From: a virus
Taxonomy: Duplodnaviria > Heunggongvirae > Uroviricota > Caudoviricetes
Virus record (IMG/VR): IMGVR_UViG_2521172717_000006
DNA: 41,265 bases
Reading direction: 5' to 3' (one strand)
Part shown: piece after piece, positions 1 through 41,265 of the stretch
Position numbering within the stretch: position 1 is the first letter of the stretch
How the letters are laid out: every line of letters starts with the position of its first letter
Notes under the pieces: model-generated
Database searches by the model: none
Seen by the model: only the letters and a program-made list of their open reading frames with translations
What the model was told of the DNA's origin: nothing
Position numbers and translations under genes: made by a program

Positions 1-1158
1 ATGCTCACCGTTAAGCAGATTGAAGCAGCAAAGCCGAAAGAAAAACCATACCGCCTACTCGATGGTAATGGACTGTACCTTTATGTCCCTGTGTCAGGGA
101 AAAAGGTATGGCAGCTTCGCTACAAGATTGACGGTAAGGAGAAAATCCTGACCGTAGGAAAATACCCGCTTATGACTTTGCAAGAGGCAAGGGATAAAGC
201 ATGGACTGCGAGGAAAGACATCTCGGTCGGAATCGATCCGGTAAAAGCGAAAAAGGCTTCGTCTAACAACAATTCCTTTAGCGCCATTTACAAGGAATGG
301 TACGAGCACAAGAAGCAAGTCTGGTCTGTAGGGTATGCGACTGAACTTGCCAAAATGTTTGACGACGACATTTTACCTATCATTGGCGGCCTTGAAATTC
401 AGGATATTGAGCCGATGCAACTGCTGGAAGTAATCCGCAGGTTTGAAGATCGCGGTGCAATGGAGCGAGCCAACAAAGCCCGCAGAAGATGCGGCGAGGT
501 TTTCCGTTACGCTATTGTCACTGGTAGGGCTAAATATAACCCGGCACCTGACCTTGCTGACGCCATGAAGGGATACCGCAAGAAGAACTTCCCGTTTTTA
601 CCTGCCGACCAGATCCCGGCATTCAACAAAGCACTTGCAACATTTTCAGGAAGTATCGTATCGCTCATTGCGACCAAAGTTTTACGCTACACAGCCCTAA
701 GAACGAAAGAGCTTCGTTCCATGCAATGGAAGAACGTCGATTTTGAAAACAGGATTATCACCATCGACGCCAGTGTGATGAAGGGACGCAAAATTCATGT
801 TGTCCCGATGTCAGACCAGGTGGTTGAACTTCTCACTACGCTAAGCTCAATCACTAAACCAGTATCAGAGTTTGTTTTTGCCGGGCGAAACGATAAGAAA
901 AAGCCAATCTGCGAGAACGCGGTATTGCTTGTGATCAAACAAATCGGCTATGAGGGTCTGGAAAGCGGTCACGGATTCAGGCATGAATTCAGCACGATTA
1001 TGAACGAGCACGAATGGCCTGCTGACGCTATTGAAGTGCAACTTGCACATGCCAACGGCGGATCTGTGCGCGGGATTTACAACCATGCTCAGTATCTAGA
1101 TAAGCGCAGAGAAATGATGCAGTGGTGGGCTGACTGGATTGATGAAAAGGTGGAGTGA
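1..1158 (+). CDS. intS: Tyrosine site-specific integrase (P4/IntS-type), 385 aa
   Basis: N-terminal MLTVKQIEAAKPKEKPYRLLDGNGLYLYV typical of P4-family integrases; C-terminal R...HxxR...Y catalytic motifs (HGFRHEF, RGIYNHAQY) present; ORF begins at window position 1. Confidence 0.9.
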   Translation: MLTVKQIEAAKPKEKPYRLLDGNGLYLYVPVSGKKVWQLRYKIDGKEKILTVGKYPLMTLQEARDKAWTARKDISVGIDPVKAKKASSNNNSFSAIYKEWYEHKKQVWSVGYATELAKMFDDDILPIIGGLEIQDIEPMQLLEVIRRFEDRGAMERANKARRRCGEVFRYAIVTGRAKYNPAPDLADAMKGYRKKNFPFLPADQIPAFNKALATFSGSIVSLIATKVLRYTALRTKELRSMQWKNVDFENRIITIDASVMKGRKIHVVPMSDQVVELLTTLSSITKPVSEFVFAGRNDKKKPICENAVLLVIKQIGYEGLESGHGFRHEFSTIMNEHEWPADAIEVQLAHANGGSVRGIYNHAQYLDKRREMMQWWADWIDEKVE

Positions 1159-1321
1159 TCGATCTTAACCACTATCGGATAGTACAAAGCTTTGTGTGCC
1201 TCGTTCATGCCTCACATTACCTGGCAATCATCAAATTCACCAGAACGTTCATAAATCGTCTTTGTGATCTGCTTCACTGTTAGACGTAATACTTTTTGCA
1301 GTTATTTTATAATCATAGAAA

Positions 1322-1336
1322 TGCTCATCATGAGCA
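1322..1336. promoter_or_regulatory. Perfect palindrome TGCTCAT-c-ATGAGCA upstream of acyltransferase promoter; possible operator
   Basis: 7-bp inverted arms around a single centre base, read directly from sequence about 30 bp upstream of the -10 element. Confidence 0.3.
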
Positions 1337-1364
1337 GTGAGTTGGTGATCTGCGCTGGTAGCCC

Positions 1365-1373
1365 TGCTATAAT
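1365..1373 (+). promoter_or_regulatory. Extended -10 promoter element TGcTATAAT for acyltransferase gene
   Basis: Consensus TATAAT hexamer preceded by TG one base upstream; no good -35, consistent with extended -10 class. Confidence 0.4.
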
Positions 1374-1391
1374 CCTTTGAAATTTTATCTC

Positions 1392-2531
1392 ATGGTGTGC
1401 ATTATGATCTTTGAGGCGCAAAGTCTTTATTTATATTTTTTGTCTCTTTTAGCCGTTGTGTTATGTATTACACTATTGACACGATATAACTATTTTTCTC
1501 ACATCAACTTTGCAAGTAACAGGTATTTCTTTATAGACGGATTGCGTGGGATAGCTGCGTTCAGCGTTCTTATTAATCACGGCGCTCATACAATTATTAC
1601 CAATGGAGTTCAGCCCATATTTATAGACTTCACAAAATACTCCATCACAGGGAATATGGGTAGCTTCGGTGTACAGATTTTCTTTTGCATTACAGGATTT
1701 TTGTTCTTTGATAAATTAATAAAAGGAAATAATACATTTGACTGGAATAAATTTTATGTTGCTCGGATAAAAAGACTCGTTCCTCTATATATGCTTACTG
1801 CGCTTTTGGTGGCAATTTTAGCTATTATATTATCCGGCAGTTCAGCAAGGCTTAACTTTGTTGATTTTTCAAGCTTCCTAAATTTTTTTGGGTTTGGATT
1901 TTTGGGCACAGAAATCTTCATTGGCTCTTTTAACGCATCAGGATTAAATGCGGTGATATGGACTCTACCGTATGAATGGAGGTTTTATTTAATTTTCCCT
2001 CTATTATCGATTGCCATCGCAAGCAAGAGATATGGTATGTTTGCCATTTCCGCAGTAATGTTACTTGCGGCAAGAGACTTTATGACAGAATTTGTTTTGT
2101 GGCCATATTTTATAGTTGGCGCCTTAGGTGCATATATATTCAATAAATCTTATGTTAACATTGATGATAAATATTGGATATTCTCATTCATTTCTTTCAT
2201 AGCTATTTTTGTTATCTTCTGCTCTTCCGCAGACAGCTATGGACGAATCAGATTTGCATGCATTTCATTACTATTTATAATGGTACTTATAACTAAACCA
2301 AAAATATTTAAAATAAAATCATTAGTTTATTTAGGTGAGGCAAGTTATAGTCTTTATTTGCTGCATTTGCCTATCATGGCTATAGTAATGAGAACAATAA
2401 ATAATTTCTATAACCTATCGAGCATGTCTACTGTGAATTACACAATTTTGATAGCCTTTATTGCATCTCTGTGTAGCGTTATTTCCTGTATCTGTTTTAA
2501 GAATTTTGAGTGGAGATTCATTAAAAAGTAA
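1392..2531 (+). CDS. Acyltransferase family 3 integral membrane protein, O-antigen acetyltransferase-like (serotype-conversion candidate)
   Basis: FIDGLRGIAAFSVLINH motif near N-terminus typical of acyltransferase_3; multi-pass hydrophobic profile; visibly AT-rich codon usage; track ORF starts at TTG 1377, first ATG is 1392 (1404 also possible). Confidence 0.8.
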   Translation: MVCIMIFEAQSLYLYFLSLLAVVLCITLLTRYNYFSHINFASNRYFFIDGLRGIAAFSVLINHGAHTIITNGVQPIFIDFTKYSITGNMGSFGVQIFFCITGFLFFDKLIKGNNTFDWNKFYVARIKRLVPLYMLTALLVAILAIILSGSSARLNFVDFSSFLNFFGFGFLGTEIFIGSFNASGLNAVIWTLPYEWRFYLIFPLLSIAIASKRYGMFAISAVMLLAARDFMTEFVLWPYFIVGALGAYIFNKSYVNIDDKYWIFSFISFIAIFVIFCSSADSYGRIRFACISLLFIMVLITKPKIFKIKSLVYLGEASYSLYLLHLPIMAIVMRTINNFYNLSSMSTVNYTILIAFIASLCSVISCICFKNFEWRFIKK

Positions 2532-2563: not shown

Positions 2564-4762
2564 CTACGCTATATTAAGATTACCATATGTATTGTTTCCA
2601 AGACCATACCATGCCCAGTTTGTTCCTGATGCAGGAGTACCTGCATTGTGAATCATATCGCCTATATTTATCAGCACTTTCCCAGGGTATGTTGTAGTAG
2701 GAGCAGTGTCTATTCCAGCAGACACATCGGCAAAACGCCAACCACAGGAAACCATATCTGCGTTATCTCTAAATTTCTTAATTGAAAACGTGTATCTGTT
2801 TCCTCTATATATCATTCCAGCAAAACTAGGCCAGTCAATAAGTTGATTTACTGGTGAGTTTAAAGTGTTACTAAACTCATTATTTTCAATAACTGGTTCA
2901 TCGATACGCACACCCGAAGTTGATACTAGATATGTAGAATCAAAGTCGTTGTCAGAAATAATTGGAGCATAACCACCAATTTCACAACCTGTATTGCCAT
3001 GAACAAAATATGACTTATTCCCTCGGTATATAGATTTTCTCCATGTGGGCATTGTTACTTTTACGGCATCAGTTCTATCAAACTGGTTGTTTTCAATCAC
3101 AAGTCCATAACAATATGCAGACATCTGAGTTTCAGCATAATCATTTATGGCATAACCACCGCCTTTAAATGTATTTTTTGTTATTTTAATTCCATTGAAT
3201 GATGTTGAGTAGTCATTACTACCATTCCAGATAATTAGAATATGAGATGAAAATGTGCCATCCTCGTTCTGATCCCCAATGCTTATATTGCTATCAATAA
3301 CAACATTCTGCGCTGCAACACCGTTAGATTCACCTCCTATCTCAACGAATATTCCTTGTCCTGTTTTGATGTTATTCGATATAACTGCACCACCAGTCAC
3401 CCCCCAAGGAGTAATCCTAGACTGAATACTTATAGGGCTTATAAAGTGATTTCTTTCTGCAATTAAATATTTTGTTCTTGCTGAGCACGCAAAATCTTCA
3501 CCAAAAGTATGCCATTTTCTGCCTGTTCTGTACGTTTGGCAGTCAATCATCTTAGCAATTCCATTAAGATTTTTAGTGAAAAATGTATAATTTGTTACCA
3601 AATCAGTCCTTACATTGCTAAGAGTTATATCCTCATTTGGTATAGCACCGTCACCATCAGCATCTGCCATTACAAAGATTCTTGCAGCCAATACGTCAAT
3701 ATCATTAATAGATCCACTACTCCCCTCAAGTGCGAAACCAAACCAATTCTCTTGAGGGGTAAACGTGGTATCTGAAGGTCCAGTTGAAAAATTTGTGCAT
3801 GACTGGTTTAACTTTATACCATTAAATTTAAAGTTTTTGCAGTTGAATAAACCAAAGCAAACACGCTCAGCCTCACCATTTCCATCTGTATTTATATTTA
3901 CATCATTATCTGCGTAAACAAATAAATTATTTTTACCATTAATTACAATTGCTGTTTTACGTATAACACCTGCAGAGTCATGATATTGCTGGCTGATTTG
4001 GTAATTAAACTTTATCTCACCGGCGCTAAAACGTATTGCTCTAACACCACCAAATTTTGATATACAAGCGTTAACCGATGCCGTTGAATCATGCACTCCG
4101 TTAATATCATGTCCAGCCCAAACTGTATGTATGCCATCGAGCACACAATTCGAACGGATCCAGCAACCAGAGCCACCACCATCACTCTCACCAGTTCCCG
4201 CAAGGAAAGCAGCGAGCTCAGCATACGAACCATCCCACGGAACTGTGGGGCTAAATATGGTGATACCGTTGTGCTGAGATTTAGGCATGCTGGCATCCCA
4301 GTAAAACTGCCCGCCGCCAAAGTTGGTTCCTGGTACGTATCCAATTACATTTAATGTGTGATTCCCAGCAGGCTCGCTCATTAAGGTATGGATGTCAGGA
4401 ACATTCTCCATTCGCTGGCTAAACTGATCGGGATCATACTTCAGCACATTGGGAAAATAGAACTGCTGCGAACCATACGCATCATATACAGCCATGGAAT
4501 GGCCTTGCACAGTTACGAACTTGGCAATCTGTCCGTTATATACCGGATATCCGGCAGCGTTAATGATTATTGGTTGCGAAACAGGAACGTGAGAGCCGTC
4601 TTCGTTCTCTATATAAACCTGAATCTGGTTTTCTGAATTTACGGGGTCAGCGTCAATTTTACCGATATAAATTTTGCCATTGGCTACGGCTTTAAAAGAA
4701 CGAGCCATAGTGAAGAGTTGCGAAGGCATGCTTACCACAACATTTGCGGTGATATCTGACAT
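2564..4762 (-). CDS. Tailspike protein: P22/HK620-type N-terminal head-binding domain plus divergent beta-helix receptor-binding domain
   Basis: N-terminus [42 protein letters not shown]...[10 protein letters not shown] matches remembered P22 gp9/HK620 tailspike head-binding domain; remainder Gly/Asn/Ser/Thr-rich; start taken at internal ATG (M17 of track ORF) with GGAG RBS. Confidence 0.9.
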
Positions 4763-4883: not shown

Positions 4884-5144
4884 ATGTACAGCAAATACGA
4901 CGAGGCGCAGTTTCACTTGAGACTTCCGCATGAACTCCACGCGAAAATTAAGCAGCGTGCGAAGATGAATAACAGGTCGCTGAACTCAGAGATAATTGCA
5001 GCGATTGAAGAATCATTGGCTAAACAAAGCTCTGCATCTGTTTACATTGACGATGCAGAGCGTATGGCAGAACAACAATCTGATATGGTTAAGAAAATTG
5101 TCTTTGATACGCTCAAAGAGCTATATAAAAAAGACAGCAGCTAA
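4884..5144 (+). CDS. mnt: Mnt-like ribbon-helix-helix repressor
   Basis: FHLRLPHELHAKIKQRAKMNNRSLNSEIIAAIEESL and C-terminal AERMAEQQSDMVKKIVFDTLKELYKK resemble P22 Mnt from memory; start chosen at M12 of track ORF. Confidence 0.75.
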   Translation: MYSKYDEAQFHLRLPHELHAKIKQRAKMNNRSLNSEIIAAIEESLAKQSSASVYIDDAERMAEQQSDMVKKIVFDTLKELYKKDSS

Positions 5145-5164: not shown

Positions 5165-5242
5165 ATGCAAAGAGATATGCTGAATATTGCGTTCTACATA
5201 TTTGGTTTTTGCACGTTCCTGGTGTTTGCGAAGCTATTCTGA
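5165..5242 (+). CDS. Candidate 25-aa hydrophobic peptide (MQRDMLNIAFYIFGFCTFLVFAKLF)
   Basis: ATG preceded by GGAGG about 4 nt upstream; single predicted TM helix; not in ORF track (too short); overlaps 3' end of ejection protein gene convergently. Confidence 0.3.
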   Translation: MQRDMLNIAFYIFGFCTFLVFAKLF

Positions 5243-7231
5243 CAATGCATCAGACTTGGCACCCTGAGTCAGGGCGTTAATGGCCTTTTGCGCCTGCTGC
5301 ATGGCTTTCTCAAACGCTGTTGATCCGCGTGGTGTGTTTGCCATTCGGAGCATTGCATTTCTGAATGGCTCGCTCTCATAGGCGCGAGTAAGAAGTCCGT
5401 AGCTTACCGCTGCGCCAGTTGTCGCCGGGTTCATTGCCGTCCCATACCCGATAATGAAAGGGATGGTTTGCTGCCCTGTTGGTGTTGTTACTGCCGCTTT
5501 TGCAGCCTGCTGCGTGGATTGCAGGTAGTTTTTCAATCCTTTCAGATAAGCGGCTTCCTGACCTTTAAATGTAATGCCAGTCTGGTTTTGCAGGATGTTA
5601 AGCTGCCGAAGGAACTGGTCAGGGGATCCGCCAGATTTCTCCATCGCCTTTCCAATGATGCCATTGCGCATTTGCGCCCTGCCAACACGACCAACTGAGT
5701 TATACAGCGTCTTAATTTCCGATTTGTTCTTGCTGAATAGCATGTTGTTGACAACTTCCGGCGTCAGGTCGCCTTTCATGAGAACATTCTTCAGCCTGGT
5801 ATTCTTTAGTTTCGCCGCTTCGTCAGCGTAGACGGCATTGGCCTGCTGATATTTACGGAGAGTATCGTTGCCAAGATTCTGACCAATGGCACCATTGATA
5901 TCGTCGGTCATCGCCTTGTAAACTCGCTGAATGGCAGCATCGGAACGGTTTGGTAACACTGGTCGCTCACCCTTCACGTCCATTCTGAACTGGCTGCGCA
6001 GATCGCTTAATTGCTTCAAATCCAGATTGACCGGACCATCAGGACCAGCATTGCGAACGAGCTCATCACGATATGACTGAAGTTTTGAAATAGTCTCGTT
6101 ATCAGCAACCTTACCAAGCTTCTGCAGGTTAGATATTTCTGTATCAATCTGCTGAATTGCTCGCGCAGGCTGAATGTTTACTCCAGCCATAGCATTCTGA
6201 ACCTGCTCCAGTCGATTACCGGCGGCACGACGAATTCCTGATGTTTTCGCTTTAAGGCTGTCAATAACAACCGCTGGATCATACTCACCGAATTTATCAG
6301 CAAATCTCTGAACCAACTGGCTTCTCGCTTCCTGTTGCGTTGCTCTCATTCCGCTTGTGCCAGCCAGGGGGATATTTTCCGCTGTCGTCTGCGCCATTTT
6401 CCCGACGCGGGAAGTGGGTTGTAACAGGTCTGTGGTGTGCAGAGGAACTCCTTCACGCTCTGCAAATCTGATAGCCTGCTGCGCTTCTGGCGCAATAGCA
6501 CCACGAACGCCACGATAAGCAGCACCTAATCCACGTCCGGCAGCGTTAATAGCACCGCCAGCCAGCACACCAACGCCTAAATCGGTGGCGAGTGCTTCCG
6601 CATCATCTTTCGCACTATTTGCAGCAAGTGATCCAACTGTGTTTTCAGCGAGAAGGCGAGTTGCCCCCTGAGCAATTCGACCAGCAAGTGTTGGTGCCTG
6701 TGCTGACGCTCTCTCAATGCCAGCAGGAGTGAGGTAAGGCAATGCCTCAGCAAATACCATGCCCTCTGTAGTTTGTGGAGTCAGCGCGCCTTTCTGAAGG
6801 CCAAAGTCCTGCTCTAATCCCTGCGTTGTTACTCGTGGCGCTGGTTGATATGTCCCATCGCCAATTCCGAGTTTACCGCCAGCCCAAGCCGCCGCGCTTG
6901 TTACAGCATCTGCAACTGATGCAGGTATGTTTGCCACGTTCACGCCCGCCTGCACCAGTCCGCGACCAGTCTCTTTTACTGCTTCACCAAGATCAGACAT
7001 AAATCCACTTTGCTGTGGTTGTTGCTGTGCTACTGGTTGCTGTGTCTCCACTGGCTGCACAGATGGCAATGGATAGGCAGCATAGAAAGCTTGCTTAGCC
7101 TGCTCTGCATTTTCTCCGGCTTGCGGGGCCACGACTTCATTGAAGTATTGCTCCTGAGCCTGCGCTTTTTGTTCTGGTGCTAACGCCTGATACTGTGGAG
7201 AGGCGATAACATCTTTCCATGCTTTAGCCAT
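5234..7231 (-). CDS. Ejection (injection) protein, P22 gp16-like
   Basis: Position last in the gp7-gp20-gp16 ejection protein series; Ala/Gln-rich 665-aa protein; stop of upstream gene overlaps start (TAATG). Confidence 0.8.
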   Translation of the reverse strand: MAKAWKDVIASPQYQALAPEQKAQAQEQYFNEVVAPQAGENAEQAKQAFYAAYPLPSVQPVETQQPVAQQQPQQSGFMSDLGEAVKETGRGLVQAGVNVANIPASVADAVTSAAAWAGGKLGIGDGTYQPAPRVTTQGLEQDFGLQKGALTPQTTEGMVFAEALPYLTPAGIERASAQAPTLAGRIAQGATRLLAENTVGSLAANSAKDDAEALATDLGVGVLAGGAINAAGRGLGAAYRGVRGAIAPEAQQAIRFAEREGVPLHTTDLLQPTSRVGKMAQTTAENIPLAGTSGMRATQQEARSQLVQRFADKFGEYDPAVVIDSLKAKTSGIRRAAGNRLEQVQNAMAGVNIQPARAIQQIDTEISNLQKLGKVADNETISKLQSYRDELVRNAGPDGPVNLDLKQLSDLRSQFRMDVKGERPVLPNRSDAAIQRVYKAMTDDINGAIGQNLGNDTLRKYQQANAVYADEAAKLKNTRLKNVLMKGDLTPEVVNNMLFSKNKSEIKTLYNSVGRVGRAQMRNGIIGKAMEKSGGSPDQFLRQLNILQNQTGITFKGQEAAYLKGLKNYLQSTQQAAKAAVTTPTGQQTIPFIIGYGTAMNPATTGAAVSYGLLTRAYESEPFRNAMLRMANTPRGSTAFEKAMQQAQKAINALTQGAKSDALSE

Positions 7232-8619
7232 TAATCACCCCATAGTGAAGAAAAATTACTGCTGGCTGCTGGCTGTGATACCTGTGCAGGTTGAGATTGC
7301 TTCCGCTGTGATTTACCAACATTAACGTTATATTGTTGGTTGTAATTGTTTGTGTATTCCTGAATCTCACGAATCGACTGCTGCATAGCCTCCGGGCTTG
7401 AATAGTCAACCTGCGGCATCCCCTGAAAATACATCTTCGCTTCTGCAACGGTGTTAATACCACTGGCACCCATGTCCCTTGCTGCCGCCACGCCCTGATT
7501 CTGCATTCTTCCCTGAATACGTTGTGCTGAGTTATATAACTGGCGCTGCTCTTTTCCTGTTAATCGGCTGCGAACATCAGCACCAATTGCTGGATTACCT
7601 GCACCGCCTGTCATTCCTGTCATGAAATCGAGAGCAGAAGCGTCTGCATTTGCGATCGCGTCGATATCCTTCTTCATGGCATAGTTTTGTGCTGATGCAG
7701 ACGATGTTGCAGGCGCTGCGATTGAACTGGCAGGAACGCGAACCATATTCCCCTCGTTGTCGATGCCTTCGTAGAACGCATTAGCCCCAGCGCCATGAAG
7801 CTTCCCGCCGACAGTTACAGTTCTGCCATCTGATAACTGAACTGTACGCTCATCATTCCCAGCAGTTCCTCTTGTTGACGATCGCTGCATTGCCAAATCC
7901 TGACCGCGTCGTGCAGTAGAAGCAGATAAATCCTGACCGCGCATCGTGATGTTCTGACCACGCGCTGTTAGTGCTTCTCCAGCCTGATTGCTGCGGATTG
8001 TCTCTGCAAGTTTTCCGCGGTCAATCTCACGACCAACGATTCTGTCCTGAACATTGAAGTAGTCAATCGGACCGAGAGCAGCCATCCCAAGGTGATCAAC
8101 AAACTCACCAAATCCTGAAGGATTATGCTGATACATCTGAGCAACGTTGTTAGGGTCAACGCCGACGCGCGCCAGTTCCTTGGCGTTGTTTTGCAGCCAT
8201 GATTGCATTGCTTCTGGAGACGATGACGCAAGGTGTGCGCCAGCCGCTAAGGTGCCGATAGAATTACGCTGCTCTTCATCAATGAATCCCATGCCTTTAC
8301 GAACGGATTCAATCTGGTCTGGATATTGAGTAGCCAACTGACGCAAAGCACCGCGATCACCAGACGCATAAGCATTAGCGTATGCCTGCTGAAATTCTTT
8401 CTGCCGCTGAGCCTGCTTTTCCTGCTGAAACACCCCCGCAATACCTGAAAGGCCTTGCAAAGCAGTCAGCCCAACATTGTTAGCGCCTGAACGCTCAATA
8501 TCATTGTTCTGCCTGATAAGCTGAAGCGTATTGCCGATGTCATTTACGCTCGGAGCGTTTGAGTTGACGCCACCGATACCAGCCAACAATCCGCCGTTTG
8601 TTCCTTGCCAAGTAGCCAT
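7231..8619 (-). CDS. Ejection protein, P22 gp20-like
   Basis: 462 aa, synteny between gp7-like and gp16-like genes. Confidence 0.8.
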
Positions 8620-8628
8620 GATTACCCC

Positions 8629-32323: not shown

Positions 32324-32418
32324 GCACTGTGTATTCATTCCAACGAGTGAATACACGGAGCAATGTCGCTCGTAACTAAACAGGAGCCGACTTGTTCTGA
32401 TTATTGGAAATCTTCTTT

Positions 32419-32444: not shown

Positions 32445-32508
32445 ATGCATACCAATAACGCTTCACTTGAGGCGTTTTCGTTATGCAATCAAATAGAAGG
32501 AGCATCCT

Positions 32509-32679
32509 ATGCAACAGTTCGCTATTGCAGGGGCGGCATCGGTTCGCCCTTTCAACCCGATTTTATCGGTGCAGCATTCACGAAAAAACATTTTAACCGG
32601 AGCAGACTTTAAACAACCAAAAATGAAAAGTTTGCTCGAAAAGCTTTGGGATATTTTGAAACAACAAGGCCGTCCATGA
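32509..32679 (+). CDS. cIII: CIII-like protease inhibitor, 56 aa
   Basis: MQQFAIAG... and LLEKLWDILKQQGRP resemble remembered lambda CIII (MQYAIAG...LIDILNQPGVP); GAAGGAG RBS; not in ORF track (under 60 aa). Confidence 0.55.
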   Translation: MQQFAIAGAASVRPFNPILSVQHSRKNILTGADFKQPKMKSLLEKLWDILKQQGRP

Positions 32680-32834
32680 GTTTTACAGATAACTGGTCAG
32701 ACGAAGAATTCATTCGTCAGATGAAAGAATTAATCGGTAACGAAGGAGATATTCATGTCACTTGCAACCACAGTGAAGGAGAGCAAGTTACAGAGACGCA
32801 TGTACACGCAGAAAGCTCTCTGGTATCGCCATAA
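32676..32834 (+). CDS. Hypothetical acidic protein, 52 aa
   Basis: ATG overlapping cIII stop (ATGA); M11 of track ORF. Confidence 0.4.
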   Translation: MSFTDNWSDEEFIRQMKELIGNEGDIHVTCNHSEGEQVTETHVHAESSLVSP

Positions 32835-32933
32835 TGGTGACCGCGAAGGAATGCGGGTATGCCTTAATTTGTCCCGAGTCGAAGTATTAAATCAGCGTTA
32901 TTTCCTTGGGCCGTGTCCATTCTGAGGTGAATT

Positions 32934-33641
32934 ATGGATTTGAATAAATTCGATGAGCCATTCAGCCCTGAAGATATCGAATGGCGAATACAGCAAAGCG
33001 GTAAAACACGCGATGGCAAAGTGTGGGCTATGGTGCTGGCTTATGTCACGAACCGGGCAATCATGAAGCGCCTGGACGATGTTTGCGGCAAAGCAGGATG
33101 GCGCAATGAATACCGCGATATTCCCAACAACGGCGGCGTTGAATGCGGCATATCAATAAAGATTGATTCCGAATGGGTAACCAAATGGGATGCTGCTGAA
33201 AACACGCAGGTAGAAGCCGTCAAAGGTGGTCGTTCCGGTGCAATGAAGCGCGCTGCCGTTCAGTGGGGAATCGGTCGGTATCTGTATAACCTTGAGGAAG
33301 GTTTCGCACAAACATCTCTCGATAAAAAGCAGGGGTGGCACAGGGCAAAACTGAAGGATGGGACAGGATTTTACTGGCTCCCTCCATCGCTGCCGGGATG
33401 GGCAATCCCAGCATCAGATAACAAACCATCACCAGAAAATACCAACCAGAAATCTCCATCGGTTGACTGCGAACAAATCCTGAAAGACTTCAGCGATTAT
33501 GCAGCGACAGAAACTGACAAGAAAAAACTCATCGAGCGTTATCAGCATGACTGGCAATTAATGGCTGGAAACGAGGAGGCGCAGGCTAAATGCGTTCAGG
33601 TAATGAACATCAGAGTTAACGAGCTAAAACAGGCGGCATAA
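32934..33641 (+). CDS. Single-strand annealing recombinase (Rad52/Sak-like core; C-terminal region resembling P22 Erf C-terminus)
   Basis: AVQWGIGRYLYNL motif typical of Rad52-family annealases; C-terminal ...YAATETDKKKLIERYQHDWQL...CVQVMNIRVNELKQAA recalled as Erf-like; position upstream of ssb. Confidence 0.7.
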   Translation: MDLNKFDEPFSPEDIEWRIQQSGKTRDGKVWAMVLAYVTNRAIMKRLDDVCGKAGWRNEYRDIPNNGGVECGISIKIDSEWVTKWDAAENTQVEAVKGGRSGAMKRAAVQWGIGRYLYNLEEGFAQTSLDKKQGWHRAKLKDGTGFYWLPPSLPGWAIPASDNKPSPENTNQKSPSVDCEQILKDFSDYAATETDKKKLIERYQHDWQLMAGNEEAQAKCVQVMNIRVNELKQAA

Positions 33642-34157
33642 ATGGCAAGCAGAGGCGTAAATAAGGTGATCATTATTGGTCGCCTTGGGCATGATCCAGA
33701 AATCAGATATTCACCATCAGGAACGGCATTTGCAAACCTTACCGTTGCTACGTCAGAACAATGGCGTGATAAGAAAACTGGAGAGCAAAAGGAGCAGACG
33801 GAGTGGCACCGCGTGGTAATGAGCTGGAAACTGGCAGAAATTGCCAGCGAATATCTGCGAAAAGGCTCTGAGGTTTATCTTGAAGGCAAATTGCGGACAA
33901 GAAAATGGCAGGATCAAAGCGGACAGGATCGGTTCACTACCGAAGTCATCGTGGGCGTTGGTGGAACCATGCAAATGCTTGGTGGCAAGCAAGGAGGCAA
34001 TGAACAGTCTTCACCTCAGCGAAATAATGGTCAGCAACAAAGACAGCAACCTCAGCAGCAGGGAAATCACAGCGAACCACCTATGGATTTTGACGACGAT
34101 ATCCCCTTTGCACCAGTAACTCTCCCCTTCCCTCGTCACGCTATTCACGCAATTTAA
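33642..34157 (+). CDS. ssb: Single-stranded DNA-binding protein with C-terminal extension past the DDDIPF tip
   Basis: OB-fold N-terminus [41 protein letters not shown]; Gly/Gln-rich linker; acidic DFDDDIPF followed by 14 extra residues [15 protein letters not shown]. Confidence 0.9.
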
Positions 34158-34165
34158 GGACTTAC

Positions 34166-34714
34166 ATGAATCACTTGATGGTTGACCTTGAAACAATGGG
34201 CAACGGGCCATACGCGCCAGTTATTTCTATTGGGTCGGTATTCTTTGACCCGAATACCGGAGAAACAGGAGAAGAGTTCTCGGTAAATATCTCGCTTGAA
34301 TCATCAATGCGATATCGAGCGCGTCCTGACGCTTCAACGATTTTATGGTGGCTGGAACAGAGTGAAGAAGCCAGAAAATCGCTAACCAGCAACACTCAGG
34401 AGCTTTCAACGGCTCTTTCATGGTTATCTGAATTCATCATAAAGAACGCTAACCACAAATTCGTTCAGGTTTGGGGGAATGGAGCATCATTTGACTGCGT
34501 TATTCTCCGCAACAGTTATTCGCTGACAGGGCAGCCAGTTCCGTGGCAGTGGTGGAATGACCGCGACGTAAGAACAATCGTCGAGCTTGGAAAGGTAATA
34601 GGATTCGACCCTAAGCGAGATATGCCATTCAAAGGAACTCGCCACAACGCGCTTGATGATGCCATCCACCAAGCCAAATACGTTTCAGCGATCTGGAAAA
34701 AGTTAGCTAAATAA
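34166..34714 (+). CDS. DEDD-family 3'-5' exonuclease
   Basis: MVDLETMG (Exo I motif D-x-E) and C-terminal HNALDDA (Exo III) motifs. Confidence 0.7.
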   Translation: MNHLMVDLETMGNGPYAPVISIGSVFFDPNTGETGEEFSVNISLESSMRYRARPDASTILWWLEQSEEARKSLTSNTQELSTALSWLSEFIIKNANHKFVQVWGNGASFDCVILRNSYSLTGQPVPWQWWNDRDVRTIVELGKVIGFDPKRDMPFKGTRHNALDDAIHQAKYVSAIWKKLAK

Positions 34715-34730
34715 TCAACCGGAGAAAAAC

Positions 34731-35024
34731 ATGCCAGCGCCTTTGTATGGTGCGGATGACGCGCGCCGCTGTTCCGGCAATTCCGTATCGGAGGTGCTGG
34801 ATAAATTCAGAAAAAACTACGATCGGATAATGTCGCTACCGCAGGAAACGAAAGAGGAAAAGGAATTTCGCCATTGTATATGGCTTGCAGAGAAAGAAGA
34901 ACGCGAGCGAATTTACCAGACATCAATCCGACCATTCCGCAAAGCCACATATACCCACTTCCCTGAAATTGACCCGCGCCTGCGTAATTACCGCTCACGC
35001 TATGGCGCTATCAGTAATGACTGA
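34731..35024 (+). CDS. Hypothetical protein, 97 aa
   Basis: ATG with GGAGA RBS. Confidence 0.5.
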
Positions 35025-35034
35025 GGAATTTACC

Positions 35035-35199
35035 ATGAGAGGACTTGCATACAATCCCGGCATTCTTCCGGCAGAAATGATTATTCGCCAACGCGTAAAG
35101 CCAATGCCATCGAGAGAGGAATTGCTTAAGAGAAATTCTTTTCCATCAGTGAATCAAAACAAATATCTGAATGCGATGTTGCGGAGTGGGAAGAAATGA
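35035..35199 (+). CDS. Hypothetical protein, 54 aa
   Basis: ATG (M51 of track ORF) with GAGGAA RBS. Confidence 0.4.
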
Positions 35200-35714
35200 A
35201 ACAAATGTCACTAATTGAGATGGATGGTTTTCTGAAAGGTAAATGCATCCCACGAGATTTAAAGGTTAACGAAACAAACGCTGAATATCTGGTGCGTAAA
35301 TTTGCTGAAGCGGAGGCCAAGTGCGCGGCGCTAGCAGCGGAGAATGCGGGGCTGAAGTCTGGCGATATGGACGAAATCAATGTTATCAACCGTGGAGGGC
35401 AGGCATATTGCGTAAAAGATGGAGTGCAAGTTAATCCCATGTATGCAAGAGGGTGGAATGACTATCGCGCAAAGTCTCTGCAATCAGACACCCCAGCCAC
35501 CGATGCTTTCCTGGCTGAAGTCCGGGCGCAGGGGGTGGATGCTGCTATTGAAGCTGCAAAAAATCTGGTGGCCCAAGAATATGAGTGTAAGGATTTCAAA
35601 GCGGCGCAGAGTGATTGCTGTATGCACCCTGGTTCAGACCTGGTAGGGAAGGTTGAAATGACTGAGTGGTTAGTTGACTTTGCTGCCCAGCTTCGCAAAG
35701 GAGGCAGCCAGTGA
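35196..35714 (+). CDS. Hypothetical protein, 172 aa
   Basis: ATG overlapping upstream stop; no recognisable motif. Confidence 0.5.
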
Positions 35715-36355
35715 ATAACCGCTTTTACATGATGTGCTTGCGTGAAACTGTGGGTAATAACGCTTCATTCCATTGCCATAACGGCAATGGTTACAGTTCT
35801 AATATCGATCGCGCTCATGTTTACACGCTGGAAGAAGCCCAAAAAGCCTGGAATTGTGGTCGAGATATCGATCAGCCTGTTTGCGCTGATAGCGTGGATG
35901 CAATGGCTGTATGGCACGTTGATTGCCAGTACATCCCTACAGAAAGCCTGATTGAGTCAGATTGCACTGCGTATGTGGCCTACAAAAAAGGTAGCTGGAA
36001 CGGCAACGATGTTTACTGGCTTCAACACGGTGGATTGCCAACCGATGACTTCAGTAAAGCGACCATCTTTTGCGTCGCCAACAAAAACGAACCAGGAATA
36101 GTTTGGTTGCCATTTTCCATTGCTGATGCAGTAAAGCGCCGGACGTTCAATATCAATAACTTTAACCGCAGAACAATGGTTCAGGGCGCAGGTTTGGTCA
36201 TGCCTGACTGGTTGAAAAAGCAGAACAGAAGAAAGAAGTCGCGAAGCGGGAAGGTGCGTTGGAATTGTCCGCATTGCGGAAAAATCACCTGGCAGTACAG
36301 CCCATATGATTTTGAAGGCTGTAGTGATTACAACTGTGAAGGATGGCGAGAATGA
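35711..36355 (+). CDS. Hypothetical protein with C-terminal Cys-rich (zinc-ribbon-like) region, 214 aa
   Basis: GTG start after GGAGG RBS; C-terminus CPHCGKITW...CSDYNCEGW. Confidence 0.5.
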   Translation: MNNRFYMMCLRETVGNNASFHCHNGNGYSSNIDRAHVYTLEEAQKAWNCGRDIDQPVCADSVDAMAVWHVDCQYIPTESLIESDCTAYVAYKKGSWNGNDVYWLQHGGLPTDDFSKATIFCVANKNEPGIVWLPFSIADAVKRRTFNINNFNRRTMVQGAGLVMPDWLKKQNRRKKSRSGKVRWNCPHCGKITWQYSPYDFEGCSDYNCEGWRE

Positions 36356-36951
36356 CAATTGACTATCAGGCACTGCGTGAGGCAGCAGAACGTGCAATTC
36401 CAGCAATGGAACGCCTGTTAATGTTGCCAGTTGATGATGATTTGTTAAGTGAACAGGAACTTAAAGATTACGGTGTGGATATTGATGCGCTCAACGCCTT
36501 CAAATTTCTGACCGGACCAGAAACCGTGCTGGCACTACTGGATGAACGGGAAAGAAACCAGCAATACATCAAACGCCGCGACCAGGAGAACGAGGATATT
36601 GCGCTAACGGTAGGGAAGCTGCGTGTTGAGCTGGAAGGCAAAGACAAGCTGATTGCAGAGCTTGGAAAACAATGCGCCGAATGGGAGCGAAAAGCATTAA
36701 GCAACTTTGAAGAGTGTGCTGCGATGGCTGAACGTATCGAAGAGATGAGTAAGCAAAGTTGCGAAGCCCGGGAGCGTGATTTGTTTGAATCATGGGTAAT
36801 GCATTCAATTTGTATCTCCAAATCGACGCTTGAAGGATTGCGTACTGAAACTGGATACCGTAACGCAACCTTATCAGGCACAGACTTCAACCGAATGTGG
36901 AAACAATGGAAATCTATCCGCGCCGCTGGCATTCGCATTAAAGGAGAGTGA
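36352..36951 (+). CDS. Hypothetical coiled-coil protein (Ead/Ea22-like accessory protein)
   Basis: ATG overlapping upstream stop (ATGA); helical, charged sequence. Confidence 0.45.
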   Translation: MTIDYQALREAAERAIPAMERLLMLPVDDDLLSEQELKDYGVDIDALNAFKFLTGPETVLALLDERERNQQYIKRRDQENEDIALTVGKLRVELEGKDKLIAELGKQCAEWERKALSNFEECAAMAERIEEMSKQSCEARERDLFESWVMHSICISKSTLEGLRTETGYRNATLSGTDFNRMWKQWKSIRAAGIRIKGE

Positions 36952-36952
36952 T

Positions 36953-37642
36953 ATGACCACTTTCACCGACAAAGAACTGATTAAAGAAATCAAAGAGCGT
37001 ATCAGCAGCCTGGACGTTCGAGACAATATTGAACGCCGGGCTTATGAAATTGCACTGGCATCGCTGGAAGCAGATCCAGTTGCTTATATTTTCAAACATC
37101 CGGCCGGGAAATTATTCTGGGCTTTAACGGATGAAAGCAATAAAGAGCAACCGGACGTTATTCCTGTTTATGCTGCCGCGCCTGCGTCGGTTGTGCCGGA
37201 TAATGCATCAGAGCCTCTTGCTTATGCTTACAAAGAGCTTACGCCTGAGATTATGCGCAACCAGGCTGCCGAATCCAATCGCGGTAATGAGTGGACCGGC
37301 AATCCTGATATTGATAACGCCATCATCATGCTCGACCGCATAGATACGCTGGAAAATTGCGATGATGACCGTATTGAGGCTGTTAAGGCTGTTTTGCGTA
37401 GACTGGCTGGCAACTCTCCGGTAACTCCGGATGGTTGGATAAGCTGTAGTGAGCGAATGCCGGATGACGGTCAGCACGTAATTATTTTATGTGATGGCGC
37501 ATTCGTTCTTTATGCGCAATATCGAGACGGTGAGTTTTTTGATGTAGTCCGTGATGGTGATGAATTTTTCGAAACACAGAGCCGCAATGTAACCGACTGG
37601 ATGCCGCTACCGGAACCGCCGCAGGGGGTTAACCGTGGCTAA
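36953..37642 (+). CDS. Hypothetical protein with DUF551-like C-terminal domain
   Basis: C-terminal DGWISCSERMPDDGQHVII...WMPLPEPP resembles the DUF551 pattern common in phage accessory proteins; start at M42 of track ORF with GGAGAG RBS. Confidence 0.5.
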   Translation: MTTFTDKELIKEIKERISSLDVRDNIERRAYEIALASLEADPVAYIFKHPAGKLFWALTDESNKEQPDVIPVYAAAPASVVPDNASEPLAYAYKELTPEIMRNQAAESNRGNEWTGNPDIDNAIIMLDRIDTLENCDDDRIEAVKAVLRRLAGNSPVTPDGWISCSERMPDDGQHVIILCDGAFVLYAQYRDGEFFDVVRDGDEFFETQSRNVTDWMPLPEPPQGVNRG

Positions 37643-37919
37643 CCTGCAACTTGCCGTCAAAGGTGAATACTTCGATGCCATAATTCGCGGGGAGAAAACG
37701 GAAGAGTATCGCCTGTGTAATGACTACTGGAATAAGCGCCTCGTTAACCGTAAGTATGACCGCCTGATTATCACAAGGGGATATCCGAAGCGCGACGACT
37801 CCAGTCGCAGAATTAACGTCCCGTATGACGGATATGAAATCAAGACAATCACACATCCGCACTTCGGCGATAAACCGGTAAAGGTGTTCGCGATAAAGGT
37901 GAATATCGGCAATGAATGA
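37635..37919 (+). CDS. ASCH/PUA-like domain protein, 94 aa
   Basis: GEYFDAIIRGEKTEEYR fits the ASCH GxKxxExR motif; GTG start. Confidence 0.45.
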   Translation: MANLQLAVKGEYFDAIIRGEKTEEYRLCNDYWNKRLVNRKYDRLIITRGYPKRDDSSRRINVPYDGYEIKTITHPHFGDKPVKVFAIKVNIGNE

Positions 37920-37961
37920 CAATCCTCGCACTCGCGGGGATTTCTTTTATATGGGGATAAT

Positions 37962-38762
37962 ATGACCATCCACTTTCACGGCAGCCCAATATGGGGGGAT
38001 GAGCATGCCCCTACAGATATGCTGATTAAAGCCCTTTACCGTGATGGTGGGGCTTTTGTTTCATTTGCCAGACCAGAGCAGATGAAAAAGATTGCCATGT
38101 TCCCTTGTGATATACGCCTTGATAACGGTGCTTTTAGCGACTGGATGAAAGCATTAAAGAAAGGCACTCCGGTAGACTGGAGTAAGAGACGAGCAAAATT
38201 CTACGACTTTGTTGGGAAGTGGTTCAGCAGAATTGAATGGTTTCTTATACCTGACGTTATCGAAGGGACAGAGGCAGAAAACGACGAGCAGATTGAGTTG
38301 GTTCCTGATTGGCTAAAATCAAAAGCGGTTCCGGTCTGGCATACCGACGAATCAATTGAACGTCTTTTACGCCTTTCTGGCAAATTTAAATGGGTGGCGA
38401 TTGGATGCTGCGGCCCACACAGGCACATACGCTCTAAATGGTGGGAACAGAGAATGGATGAAGTTTTCACTGAGCTTTATATCAATCGTAATTTGAAAGT
38501 GAAAATTCATGGTCTTCGAATGCTCGACGTGAGAGTTCTTGGTATGTATCCGTTCGCCAGTGCGGATTCTACTAATGTTGCTGTTAACGTACCGAAGACA
38601 GAGAAGCGATTTCCTGAGATTACCGACAAACTGGCACGTACAGCTGTACTTCGCGCAGCTATTGAAAAGGTGCACCCACCATCGATATCAGCATGGGTAG
38701 ACAGAAAGATGAGAGAGCCGGCGCAAGCCGGTTTTTTATTTGAATTCACCGACGCCGCTTAA
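37962..38762 (+). CDS. Hypothetical protein, 266 aa (function not recognised)
   Basis: ATG with RBS; conserved-looking Trp/His/Cys positions (IGCCGPHRH) but no family assignable by eye. Confidence 0.5.
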   Translation: MTIHFHGSPIWGDEHAPTDMLIKALYRDGGAFVSFARPEQMKKIAMFPCDIRLDNGAFSDWMKALKKGTPVDWSKRRAKFYDFVGKWFSRIEWFLIPDVIEGTEAENDEQIELVPDWLKSKAVPVWHTDESIERLLRLSGKFKWVAIGCCGPHRHIRSKWWEQRMDEVFTELYINRNLKVKIHGLRMLDVRVLGMYPFASADSTNVAVNVPKTEKRFPEITDKLARTAVLRAAIEKVHPPSISAWVDRKMREPAQAGFLFEFTDAA

Positions 38763-38819
38763 TGCGGGTTTCTTTTATCTGAACTCGCTACGGCGAGTTT
38801 TGTTTTATGGAGACAAGAA

Positions 38820-39164
38820 ATGTCAGATTTGGCTATGAAGATTTTGAAATGGCAATCGACTGGCGATGTCGGCATCAGTAGCGCAACTCTTGCATCGATC
38901 GCATGTGGACTGAAAAAGAATATCTATGGTCATTACTTCGGCGCTCCACATGACGCAGCAGACTTCCGGCGATGCGTTACACTTGTCGAGCAGATTCCAG
39001 AAATCAGAGATTCATTCGACAAGGTTGCAAAGCGCGCTCCGGCATTCAAAGGAATCCTCAACGAATGGGATTCTCTCGTTGCTCTGTTGAAGTCTGAAAT
39101 GAAGATACACGGAAACAAAGCACCAGAGACTTACAGAAGAATCAGCGAGCTACGCAATGACTAA
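38820..39164 (+). CDS. Hypothetical protein, 114 aa
   Basis: ATG with GGAGA RBS; last gene of pL operon before terminators. Confidence 0.5.
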   Translation: MSDLAMKILKWQSTGDVGISSATLASIACGLKKNIYGHYFGAPHDAADFRRCVTLVEQIPEIRDSFDKVAKRAPAFKGILNEWDSLVALLKSEMKIHGNKAPETYRRISELRND

Positions 39165-39287: not shown

Positions 39288-39488
39288 ATGCAACACGAAC
39301 TACAGCCTGATTCCCTGGTTGATTTGAAATTCATCATGGCTGATACTGGCTTCGGTAAAACCTTCATCTATGACCGGATTAAGTCCGGCGACCTGCCAAA
39401 AGCCAAAGTTATCCACGGGCGAGCAAGATGGTTATATCGTGACCATTGTGAATTCAAAAATAAGCTCTTAAGCCGCGCTAATGGGTAA
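39288..39488 (+). CDS. torI: Excisionase / recombination directionality factor, TorI-type (66 aa)
   Basis: Sequence MQHELQPDSLVDLKFIMADTGFGKTFIYDRIKSGDLPKAKVIHGRARWLYRDHCEFKNKLLSRANG recognised as TorI/AlpA-family winged-helix Xis. Confidence 0.9.
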   Translation: MQHELQPDSLVDLKFIMADTGFGKTFIYDRIKSGDLPKAKVIHGRARWLYRDHCEFKNKLLSRANG

Positions 39489-39561
39489 ATTAGCGGGTAA
39501 AATATTTCTCACATCTAAAAAATACCATTCTAATCAATCCCCTGCTGCCTCAAGTAGATGT

Positions 39562-39576
39562 CTGCAGGGGACACCA
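39562..39576 (+). other. Probable attR core: tRNA 3' acceptor end CTGCAGGGGACACCA
   Basis: 15-nt sequence ending in the characteristic ...GGGGACACCA tRNA 3' end, about 75 bp downstream of excisionase gene. Confidence 0.55.
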
Positions 39577-39964
39577 GATACCCTTCAAACGAAATCTACC
39601 TTCACCCCGTAAAAGATGGGTTTGGCAGCACACTTGCCTTATATCTACTCATTTTTACTGCAACAGGTTGAAATCTCAGCACTGTCAGAAAGCGCTGATG
39701 ACTAAACAGCCCTGGGCCGGGCGATGTAACCATCACACAGAATCCTGATAGCGAAATATGGCGTGACTCGATACTTCACTCCGCAATGCATTCCTTGATG
39801 AATTCGCAGGACCGTGATACACGGGACAGGTCACTGAATGACGACAATGTCCTGGAAATCAGCGAACCGCGCATCTGAAGTACATTTGAGCGACTGTACC
39901 AGAACATGAATGAGGCGTTTGGATTAGGCGATTATTAGCAGGGCTAAGCATTTTACTATTATTA

Positions 39965-40008
39965 TTTTCCGGTTGAGGGATATAGAGCTATCGACAACAA
40001 CCGGAAAA
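39965..40008. repeat. Perfect 11-bp inverted repeat TTTTCCGGTTG ... CAACCGGAAAA with 22-nt spacer, just downstream of permease gene
   Basis: Read directly; no T-run, so not a canonical intrinsic terminator. Confidence 0.4.
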
Positions 40009-40017
40009 AGTTTACGT

Positions 40018-41265
40018 CTATATTGCTGAAGGTACAGGCGTTTCCATAACTATTTGCTCGCGTTTTTTACTCAAGAAGAAAATGCCAAATAGCAACATCA
40101 GGCAGACAATACCCGAAATTGCGAAGAAAACTGTCTGGTAGCCTGCGTGGTCAAAGAGTATCCCAGTCGGCGTTGAAAGCAGCACAATCCCAAGCGAACT
40201 GGCAATTTGAAAACCAATCAGAAAGATCGTCGACGACAGGCGCTTATCAAAGTTTGCCACGCTGTATTTGAAGACGGATATGACACAAAGTGGAACCTCA
40301 ATGGCATGTAACAACTTCACTAATGAAATAATCCAGGGGTTAACGAACAGCGCGCAGGAAAGGATACGCAACGCCATAATCACAACTCCGATAAGTAATG
40401 CATTTTTTGGCCCTACCCGATTCACAAAGAAAGGAATAATCGCCATGCACAGCGCTTCGAGTACCACCTGGAATGAGTTGAGATAACCATACAGGCGCGT
40501 TCCTACATCGTGTGATTCGAATAAACCTGAATAAAAGACAGGAAAAAGTTGTTGATCAAAAATGTTATAGAAAGACCACGTCCCCACAATAAATATGACG
40601 AAAACCCAGAAGTTTCGATCCTTGAAAACTGCGATAAAATCCTCTTTTTTTACCCCTCCCGCATCTGCCGCTACGCACTGGTGATCCTTATCTTTAAAAC
40701 GCATGTTGATCATCATAAATACAGCGCCAAATAGCGAGACCAACCAGAAGTTGATATGGGGACTGATACTAAAAAATATGCCGGCAAAGAACGCGCCAAT
40801 AGCATAGCCAAAAGATCCCCAGGCGCGCGCTGTTCCATATTCGAAATGAAAATTTCGCGCCATTTTTTCGGTGAAGCTATCAAGCAAACCGCATCCCGCC
40901 AGATACCCCAAGCCAAAAAATAGCGCCCCCAGAATTAGACCTACAGAAAAATTGCTTTGCAGTAACGGTTCATAAACGTAAATCATAAACGGTCCGGTCA
41001 AGACCAGGATGAAACTCATACACCAGATGAGCGGTTTCTTCAGACCGAGTTTATCCTGAACGATGCCGTAGAACATCATAAATAGAATGCTGGTAAACTG
41101 GTTGACCGAATAAAGTGTACCTAATTCCGTCCCTGTCAACCCTAGATGTCCTTTCAGCCAAATAGCGTATAACGACCACCACAGCGACCAGGAAATAAAA
41201 AAGAGAAATGAGTAACTGGATGCAAAACGATAGTACGCATTTCTGAATGGAATATTCAGTGCCAT
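40018..41265 (-). CDS. cscB: LacY-family oligosaccharide:H+ symporter, sucrose permease CscB-like (chromosomal)
   Basis: 415 aa; N-terminus MALNIPFRNAYYRFASSYSFLFFISWSLWWSLYAIWLKGHLGL recognised as CscB / LacY-like 12-TM permease; ORF start coincides with window end. Confidence 0.85.
   Translation of the reverse strand: MALNIPFRNAYYRFASSYSFLFFISWSLWWSLYAIWLKGHLGLTGTELGTLYSVNQFTSILFMMFYGIVQDKLGLKKPLIWCMSFILVLTGPFMIYVYEPLLQSNFSVGLILGALFFGLGYLAGCGLLDSFTEKMARNFHFEYGTARAWGSFGYAIGAFFAGIFFSISPHINFWLVSLFGAVFMMINMRFKDKDHQCVAADAGGVKKEDFIAVFKDRNFWVFVIFIVGTWSFYNIFDQQLFPVFYSGLFESHDVGTRLYGYLNSFQVVLEALCMAIIPFFVNRVGPKNALLIGVVIMALRILSCALFVNPWIISLVKLLHAIEVPLCVISVFKYSVANFDKRLSSTIFLIGFQIASSLGIVLLSTPTGILFDHAGYQTVFFAISGIVCLMLLFGIFFLSKKREQIVMETPVPSAI

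Follow-up and report, generated by a model that had tools for sequence, protein, structure and literature searches.

The virus record IMGVR_UViG_2521172717_000006 of IMG/VR comprises 41,265 bp (hereafter, the window, meaning this whole stretch), which we placed in the chromosome of Escherichia coli W by megablast of its right end against complete E. coli genomes and by the annotation of the region (NC_017635.1, positions 2,618,292–2,659,556, 100% identity). From left to right, the locus contains yfdC, the tRNA-Arg gene argW, intS, prophage genes, torI, cscB, cscK, cscA, cscR, a truncated dsdX, and dsdA, and the edges of the window coincide with the start codons of intS and cscB. No tRNA gene was detected inside the window by ARAGORN; argW, on the plus strand, ends 160 bp upstream of window position 1, and both argW and the left attachment arm (attL) lie just outside. 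The original prediction, made from the sequence of the window alone, had anticipated this context, with argW on one side and csc genes continuing on the other. The window very likely holds a complete temperate P22-like (Lederbergvirus-type) prophage of ~39.7 kb together with the host gene cscB, the prophage being a mosaic of known modules integrated at argW by the tyrosine integrase IntS (Table 1).

The ends of the prophage are marked by a 15-bp sequence, CTGCAGGGGACACCA. No longer exact repeat is shared by the argW region and the torI–cscB spacer; one copy of the sequence lies at the 3′ end of argW and the other at window positions 39562–39576. With up to 2 mismatches allowed, exactly 2 sites were found in the 50-kb locus, compared with 0.04 expected by chance. 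The core, CTGCAGGGGACACCA(T), thus overlaps the 3′ end of argW and is duplicated at the opposite end of the prophage, and it is the same as the published attachment core of KplE1, CTGCAGGGGACACCAT (PMC2951348). We built a synthetic empty site by joining the 400 bp that run up to the 3′ end of argW to the 700 bp immediately beyond the core of the right attachment site (attR). This junction of argW, spacer, and cscB was matched end to end at 100% identity in many E. coli genomes, and at least 80% of it was covered in one place in 1,410 of 5,426 complete E. coli genomes. Together, the repeated core and the empty site indicate that a prophage of ~39.7 kb was inserted precisely into attB, between argW and a pre-existing csc flank. 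The attL arm with the intS promoter occupies the 176 bp directly upstream of the window and overlaps the argW 3′ end; it is identical to that of K-12 KplE1 at 172 of 176 positions, attR is identical at 84 of 88, and the reconstructed attP matches that of HK620 at 240 of 249. At the sequence level, the arms, which in KplE1 carry the IntS, TorI, and IHF sites and the intS promoter, are therefore conserved as whole arms. Viewed in isolation, the window, in which int begins at position 1 and a xis gene of the same orientation is found at 39.3 kb, resembles a circular P22-type map interrupted by a permease gene, and its 41,265 bp fall in the size range of the P22-like genomes compared. Nevertheless, a circularly permuted free phage carrying the cscB-like permease as a moron between xis and int is effectively ruled out by the genome context (the window is internal to the W chromosome and is preceded by argW and followed by cscKAR), by the attR core between torI and cscB, and by the empty site, argW and cscB being linked without a prophage in the 1,410 genomes.

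The integration module is of the KplE1/CPS-53 type, as originally proposed, the IntS and TorI proteins being 99% and 100% identical at the amino acid level to those of K-12; IME10 also encodes near-identical IntS and TorI (99% and 100%, respectively). Missed by the original prediction was the location of int and xis at opposite ends of the prophage, which defines the KplE1/HK620/Sf6 arrangement: intS (plus strand) is at the left end in the same orientation as argW, and torI (plus strand) ends 73 bp before the attR core. The annotations of HK620 and Sf6 show the same layout. In the KplE1/HK620/Sf6/CUS-3 module, attP is located between int and the gene for the recombination directionality factor (RDF), and the intS promoter overlaps attL (PMC2951348); int and xis are found at opposite prophage ends because attP lies between the two genes. 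In KplE1-type lysogens, torI is at attR and is transcribed separately from intS, and both TorI-dependent excision and negative autoregulation of intS have been demonstrated experimentally for KplE1 (PMC2951348). From the near identity to KplE1, we infer that the same excision and autoregulation would hold for the W prophage.

Table 1. Features of the window. Coordinates are window positions; aa, amino acid identity; nt, nucleotide identity; E, E-value; ORF, open reading frame.
Feature	Coordinates	Strand	Basis
intS tyrosine integrase	1..1158	+	99% aa to K-12 IntS, HK620, and Sf6 Int; PGAP name intS
Acyl_transf_3 family acyltransferase	1404..2531	+	Pfam PF01757, E 8e-33; 22% aa to Sf6 Oac; position of Sf6 oac
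Tailspike (gene 9 equivalent)	2564..4762	-	PF09008, E 7e-66 (6.7e-66); residues 1-113 are the P22-type head-binding domain
Mnt-like ribbon-helix-helix repressor	4884..5144	+	Pfam Arc and Repressor_Mnt; 98% aa to IME10
Ejection proteins gp16, gp20, gp7, then gp14, tail needle gp26 with knob, gp10	5234..12045	-	Mostly Sf6-type
P22-type head module: gp4, small ORF, coat gp5, scaffold gp8, portal gp1, terminase gp2 and gp3	12045..19173	-	aa identities
Accessory ORFs between packaging and lysis: DUF2560, GIY-YIG/T5orf172 ORF, 50-aa ORF	19253..20585	-	Pfam MUG113/T5orf172
Lysis cassette	20573..21820	-	S holin 21497-21820; R transglycosylase 21037-21513; Rz 20573-21040; embedded Rz1 20614-20820
Q late-gene antiterminator	22254..22877	-	100% aa, 97-100% nt to lambda Q
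nin region: ninH, rusA, DUF1364, roi pseudogene, ninF, ninX, ninE, N6-adenine methyltransferase, ninB	22874..26103	-	HK620-type, 97% nt for 22.9-24.5 kb
Replication: DnaB-type helicase (P), O initiator, DUF2740	26498..28962	-	98-99% aa to HK620
Immunity region: cII (-), cro (-), cI (+, 29764-30387)	28995..30387		94% nt to lambdoid siphophages ev207, ev017, PhiR57_1
P22 gp24-type N antiterminator	30741..31049	+	67% aa to P22 gp24, identical arginine-rich motif (ARM)
Nun-like ORF, 92 aa	31052..31330	+	phrog_5632, E 3e-29; starts 2 bp after the N gene
Early-left operon: cIII, erf, ssb, 3′-5′ exonuclease, abc2, ea22-like, DUF551, ASCH ORFs, DpdA homologue, small ORFs	31388..39164	+	PHROG, Pfam
DpdA homologue, 266 aa	37962..38762	+	98.5% aa to HK106 YP_007151699; about 58% to Salmonella phage 7-11 YP_004782407
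torI recombination directionality factor (excisionase)	39288..39488	+	100% aa to K-12 TorI, HK620/Sf6 homologues
attR: P arm and 15-bp core (39562-39576)	39489..39576	+	Prophage right end; core repeat, K-12 identity, empty site
Chromosomal spacer of the csc segment	39577..40017		Contiguous with argW in prophage-free genomes
cscB sucrose:H+ symporter, 415 aa (host DNA, not prophage)	40018..41265	-	LacY_symp Pfam, E 1.7e-193; TIGR00882

We compared the window, per 500 bp and per protein, with six reference genomes, namely, those of lambda, P22, HK620, Sf6, and IME10 and the K-12 CPS-53 region. The module-level mosaic foreseen in the original prediction is apparent as sharp breakpoints in the identity profiles against these references. 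The virion genes are arranged on the minus strand in the order 3-2-1-8-5-4-10-26-14-7-20-16-(mnt)-9 (5234–19173 plus the tailspike gene at 2564–4762), which annotation and tblastn confirm to be that of P22, as had been claimed. The accompanying claim that the virion sequences also follow P22 stands for the lineage of the head, but the virion genes are only about 78%–81% identical to those of P22 at the nucleotide level, and the nearest relatives are IME10 for the head and Sf6 for the needle and most of the injection proteins. The head module is about 78% identical to that of P22 in nucleotide sequence. At the amino acid level, the head and terminase proteins are 73%–93% identical to those of P22 (59% for gp4) and 98%–100% identical to those of IME10. 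Coat, portal, TerL, and TerS match their P22 counterparts over 100% of their length with 73%, 78%, 93%, and 81% identity, respectively, and no counterpart of coat or terminase was found in HK620 or Sf6 in the per-protein comparison. The gp16, gp7, gp26, and gp10 proteins share 98%, 99%, 97%, and 99% of amino acids with those of Sf6, whereas gp20 is internally mosaic, matching P22 at 66% along its entire length and Sf6 at 92% along half of it. Gene 16 and the tailspike gene flank the Mnt-like gene, a remnant of immI that has neither arc nor ant beside it.

S, R, Rz/Rz1, and Q had all been described as nearly identical to those of lambda. This proved accurate for Q (100% amino acid identity) and for S and R (99%), with 93%–100% nucleotide identity per 100 bp both across Q and across S–R, but Rz is identical to its lambda homologue at only 96 of 156 residues (62%, compared with 91% for HK620) and Rz1 at 27 of 70. 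Rz is ~95% identical to lambda at the nucleotide level over roughly the first 85 codons and diverges thereafter, with the breakpoint near 20860–20960; judging from these comparisons, the C-terminal half of Rz and Rz1 are of the HK620 type. The Q–S spacer likewise departs from lambda and follows HK620. In the nin region, the roi pseudogene (23708–24429) is 97% identical to HK620 roi and carries a 1-bp deletion in a run of C near 24118, which is common to 4 W-lineage assemblies (window positions 1–25000 aligned ungapped, with a bit score equal to the self-match). The frameshifted antirepressor noticed earlier is this gene: it does belong to an antirepressor family and is frameshifted, but it is a Roi/KilAC accessory gene of the nin region and not the Ant of immI. 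No equivalent of roi is present in P22, Sf6, or IME10, and roi is therefore very likely dispensable and its loss probably has no bearing on inducibility.

The immunity region adds a stretch of lambda sequence to the module picture drawn originally. The cI repressor is a hybrid: its N-terminal DNA-binding domain is unrelated to that of lambda cI (19 of 92 residues identical), and its C-terminal domain matches lambda cI at 133 of 145 residues and retains the Ala-Gly site of cleavage and the catalytic Ser and Lys. In the early-left operon, Erf and Ssb are 99% and 96% identical, respectively, to the Sf6 proteins at the amino acid level.

These modules suggest how the prophage would function, the steps from repression to lysis being deduced from what is known of the modules in their parent phages. 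IntS recombined attP with the argW 3′ end, leaving intS at attL and torI at attR. The hybrid cI would keep the prophage repressed. RecA-stimulated cleavage of the lambda-type C-terminal domain of cI would derepress PL and PR, whereupon the P22-type N would antiterminate early transcription as far as torI, at the distal end of the PL operon, and the genome would be excised by TorI acting with IntS and IHF. The lambda-type Q would turn on the late operon; the P22-type terminase would package the DNA by a headful mechanism into a P22-type capsid closed by the Sf6-type needle; and cell lysis would fall to the lambda S holin and R transglycosylase, aided by a spanin of the HK620 type (Rz/Rz1). The mosaic itself very likely arose as lambdoid phages recombined with one another, both homologously and illegitimately, which left some of the joints within genes (cI, Rz, gp20, and the tailspike gene).

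Induction of the prophage is plausible from its gene content. The virion, lysis, late-control, replication, immunity, and recombination ORFs each align over ~100% of their length with homologues from isolated phages (IME10, Sf6, HK620, lambda, and P22), in agreement with the earlier statement that all morphogenesis and lysis ORFs are full length. Several points weigh against a complete and functional prophage. One gene, roi, is a pseudogene; we found no published evidence of induction or particle production for the W prophage, the genome paper only listing the element (Archer 2011); completeness was judged on ORFs and attachment sites; and the roles proposed below for the tailspike (O-antigen specificity) and for the acyltransferase (its substrate) come from gene position and distant homology. 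The element could be a cryptic prophage that is structurally complete yet yields no plaque-forming phage. The roi/KilAC frameshift shared by all 4 W-lineage assemblies and the lack of an induction report, Archer 2011 giving no induction data, are compatible with this alternative, which we nevertheless regard as somewhat unlikely: the essential P22-type genes, the lysis genes, Q, N, O/P, cI/cro/cII, int, torI, and the attachment sites are full length and 97%–100% identical to those of isolated phages, roi is absent from 3 such phages (P22, Sf6, and IME10), and cI keeps its cleavage and catalytic residues.

Host specificity appears to be concentrated in a cassette near the left end of the prophage. 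The acyltransferase gene and the receptor-binding part of the tailspike gene (about 1.2–4.4 kb) are low in GC (36%–38%), their DNA has no match in the six references, and the cassette has no relative at the DNA level among 50,697 phage records. Among the 5,426 E. coli genomes, the acyltransferase DNA occurs only in those of the W lineage, and the receptor-binding DNA occurs outside the W lineage in a single genome. The N-terminal 16% of the tailspike is 89%–91% identical at the amino acid level to those of HK620, Sf6, and IME10, whereas the receptor-binding part is divergent, with about 39% amino acid identity to the tailspikes of siphophages for which the hosts listed include the O6 strains CFT073 and ATCC 25922. 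The serotype of W is O6 (Archer 2011, PMC3032704). O6 specificity of the tailspike is thus a reasonable guess, and the acyltransferase is a putative O-antigen-modifying conversion gene; the low-GC cassette would most likely set the O-antigen specificity and modify the O-antigen of the lysogen.

The early-left region encodes 2 further proteins of potential relevance to phage biology. In HK022, Nun occupies the position that N has in lambda, and in the window a Nun-like ORF directly follows the N gene. Its overall identity to Nun is 34 of 114 positions, with an Arg-rich N-terminus and a C-terminal motif including Lys-Lys-Trp; the C-terminus, VVNHAHQRNPKKKW, is nearly identical to that of HK022 Nun, VVNHAHQRNPNKKWS, Trp being here the last residue and not the penultimate one. 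In Nun itself, which combines an N-terminal arginine-rich motif with ...HxH...KKW near its C-terminus, arrest depends on K106/K107 and W108 (PMC4124055). The family is small, with 9 clusters in a database of 5.8 billion proteins, and tblastn of the ORF against the phage collection returned nothing at E<1e-3. The pairing of N with a Nun-like ORF recurs in 2 diverged members found in lambdoid prophage loci with different immunity regions (L013 and L014, both at 3636–4279). The second protein is a homologue of DpdA. HK106 YP_007151699 and 7-11 YP_004782407, to which it is related, are both listed as DpdA in the "DpdA-only" group (Hutinet 2019), and the DNA of phage 7-11 contains only trace dADG. 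The ORF at 37962–38762 matched no Pfam, NCBIfam, or PDB sequence and in these sequence searches showed no recognizable TGT family signature, and we found no paper on DpdA in HK106. The prophage carries no preQ0 synthesis genes, and the DpdA homologue would therefore depend on the host pathway. Taken at its fullest, this gene content would describe a live, inducible phage specific for the O6 antigen of W, with a Nun-type transcription-arrest exclusion protein paired with its own N and a "DpdA-only" enzyme that inserts host-made 7-deazaguanine into phage DNA, a combination that we consider unlikely. Were one phage to encode both N and Nun, one would have to ask how its own transcription escapes arrest. 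The Nun-like and DpdA proteins and the host-range cassette are modest leads, which leave the verdict on the prophage unchanged.

Among known phages, the best overall match is IME10 (NC_019501), an isolated E. coli P22-like podophage with 96% nucleotide identity over 68% of window positions 1–25000. The 2 genomes share the head and terminase proteins (98%–100% amino acid identity), IntS, TorI, and the lambda-type S, R, and Q, but differ in the receptor-binding domain of the tailspike, the needle (51% amino acid identity), the O initiator, immunity, and several early-left genes, and IME10 has no match to the acyltransferase, GIY-YIG, DpdA, or Nun-like ORFs. With HK620 and Sf6 (Lederbergvirus) and with KplE1, the prophage shares integration at argW, IntS and TorI (99%–100% amino acid identity), and the location of int and the RDF gene on opposite sides of attP. 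The nin region, replication genes, and Rz/Rz1 are of types shared with HK620, and the ejection proteins, needle, Erf, and Ssb of types shared with Sf6, which also has a conversion gene (oac) between int and the tailspike gene. In contrast, the coat, scaffold, portal, and terminase of HK620 and Sf6 are of a different type (no match or 27%–39% amino acid identity), as are their immunity and tailspike specificity, whereas KplE1 is a 10-kb remnant having only int, torI, and the attachment sites in common with the prophage. From P22, with which it has in common the virion gene order, the coat/portal/terminase lineage (73%–93% amino acid identity), the N ARM, abc2, an mnt-like gene, and the head-binding domain of the tailspike, the prophage differs in int/xis and the attachment site, and P22 has a full immI (mnt-arc-ant), sieA, and gtrABC in place of the acyltransferase; the P22 endolysin gene 19 also differs, and R has no match in P22. 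Lambda shares Q (100%), S and R (99% amino acid identity), the first half of Rz, ninE/ninF, and the C-terminal (oligomerization and cleavage) domain of cI (133/145), but its virion, int/xis, replication, and recombination genes are not found in the prophage. Kapi1, a temperate E. coli podophage, is reported to integrate at argW and to modify the host O-antigen (PMC8787464), which is also the lifestyle proposed here for the prophage.

The exact mosaic was found in only 4 of the 5,426 complete E. coli genomes, all W-lineage records (NC_017635, CP118014 [B-766], CP026085, and CM135829), whereas many other E. coli genomes contain related P22-like prophages with 72%–82% coverage and 95%–97% identity. 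This distribution bears on whether the mosaic could be an assembly chimera of several W prophages. W carries other lambdoid prophages, and its original assembly was based on 454 reads, with repeats collapsed for 2 P2-like prophages (PMC3032704), but a chimera is nonetheless extremely improbable, given that the 4 W-lineage records, which may not have been sequenced independently, are identical in the ungapped 25-kb piece and at the right junction, and that related prophages with the same module order are present in many other genomes. Two of these records, NZ_CP026085.1 and NZ_CM135829.1, are labeled "strain DH5alpha" but are identical to W over window positions 1–25000 and 38800–41265, which take in most of the prophage and the torI–cscB junction; as K-12 MG1655 differs from W at this locus (see below), they are probably mislabeled W derivatives.

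The prophage, its recombination module, lambdoid/P22 mosaicism, and the argW–csc–dsd hotspot are already known. The genome paper lists the element as "Argw*W (lambda)" at argW, opposite K-12 CPS-53, and states that no mobile element of W encodes genes of particular note (Archer 2011, PMC3032704). As a discovery, the prophage thus matters little, the genome having been published and the element cataloged as Argw*W. In practical terms, E. coli W is an industrial sucrose-utilizing chassis in which a structurally intact, probably SOS-inducible prophage of the generalized-transducing type adjoins the csc genes; this is relevant to strain stability and prophage curing, and the exact attachment junctions would permit scarless deletion.

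Between the DUF2560 gene and the lysis cassette lies a GIY-YIG/T5orf172 nuclease-like ORF (19744–20229, minus strand, 161 aa), which has no counterpart in any of the six reference genomes and could be a homing-endonuclease-like moron. A PADLOC search for defense systems among 10 unannotated ORFs gave a single marginal match, that of the GIY-YIG ORF to PDC-S57 (E 4e-4).

Beyond attR, the window ends in host DNA. The original prediction had identified the permease gene as cscB-like and part of a csc island near argW, with 2 acquired elements sharing one tRNA locus, and both propositions are upheld: cscK, cscA, cscR, and the truncated dsdX adjoin cscB, and the break in K-12 homology and the empty site agree with 2 acquisitions. 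The csc regulon of W, including cscB, and its position have been described (Archer 2011, PMC3032704). Homology to K-12 breaks off exactly where the att core ends and is found again 5.56 kb further on, within dsdX, indicating that the csc segment abuts the argW core and has replaced dsdC and the 5′ part of dsdX; K-12 MG1655 carries the CPS-53 remnant and dsdC at this locus. We considered whether the csc segment is itself a site-specific island bracketed by a third att core, but none was found in the 50 kb with up to 2 mismatches, and the other end of the segment lies inside dsdX. On the evidence of these junctions, the 5.56-kb csc segment is an acquisition independent of the prophage. The locus has already been described as a hotspot of recombination, home to csc or dsd genes and a frequent target of lambdoid phages (PMC11251922). 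Finally, the 441-bp spacer between attR and cscB contains a 30-codon remnant from the N-terminal part of a DUF4942 gene (39786–39875, plus strand). Prophage-free genomes such as CP042969 have an annotated DUF4942 pseudogene in this position, and the remnant may be the relic of an older, decayed island at argW.

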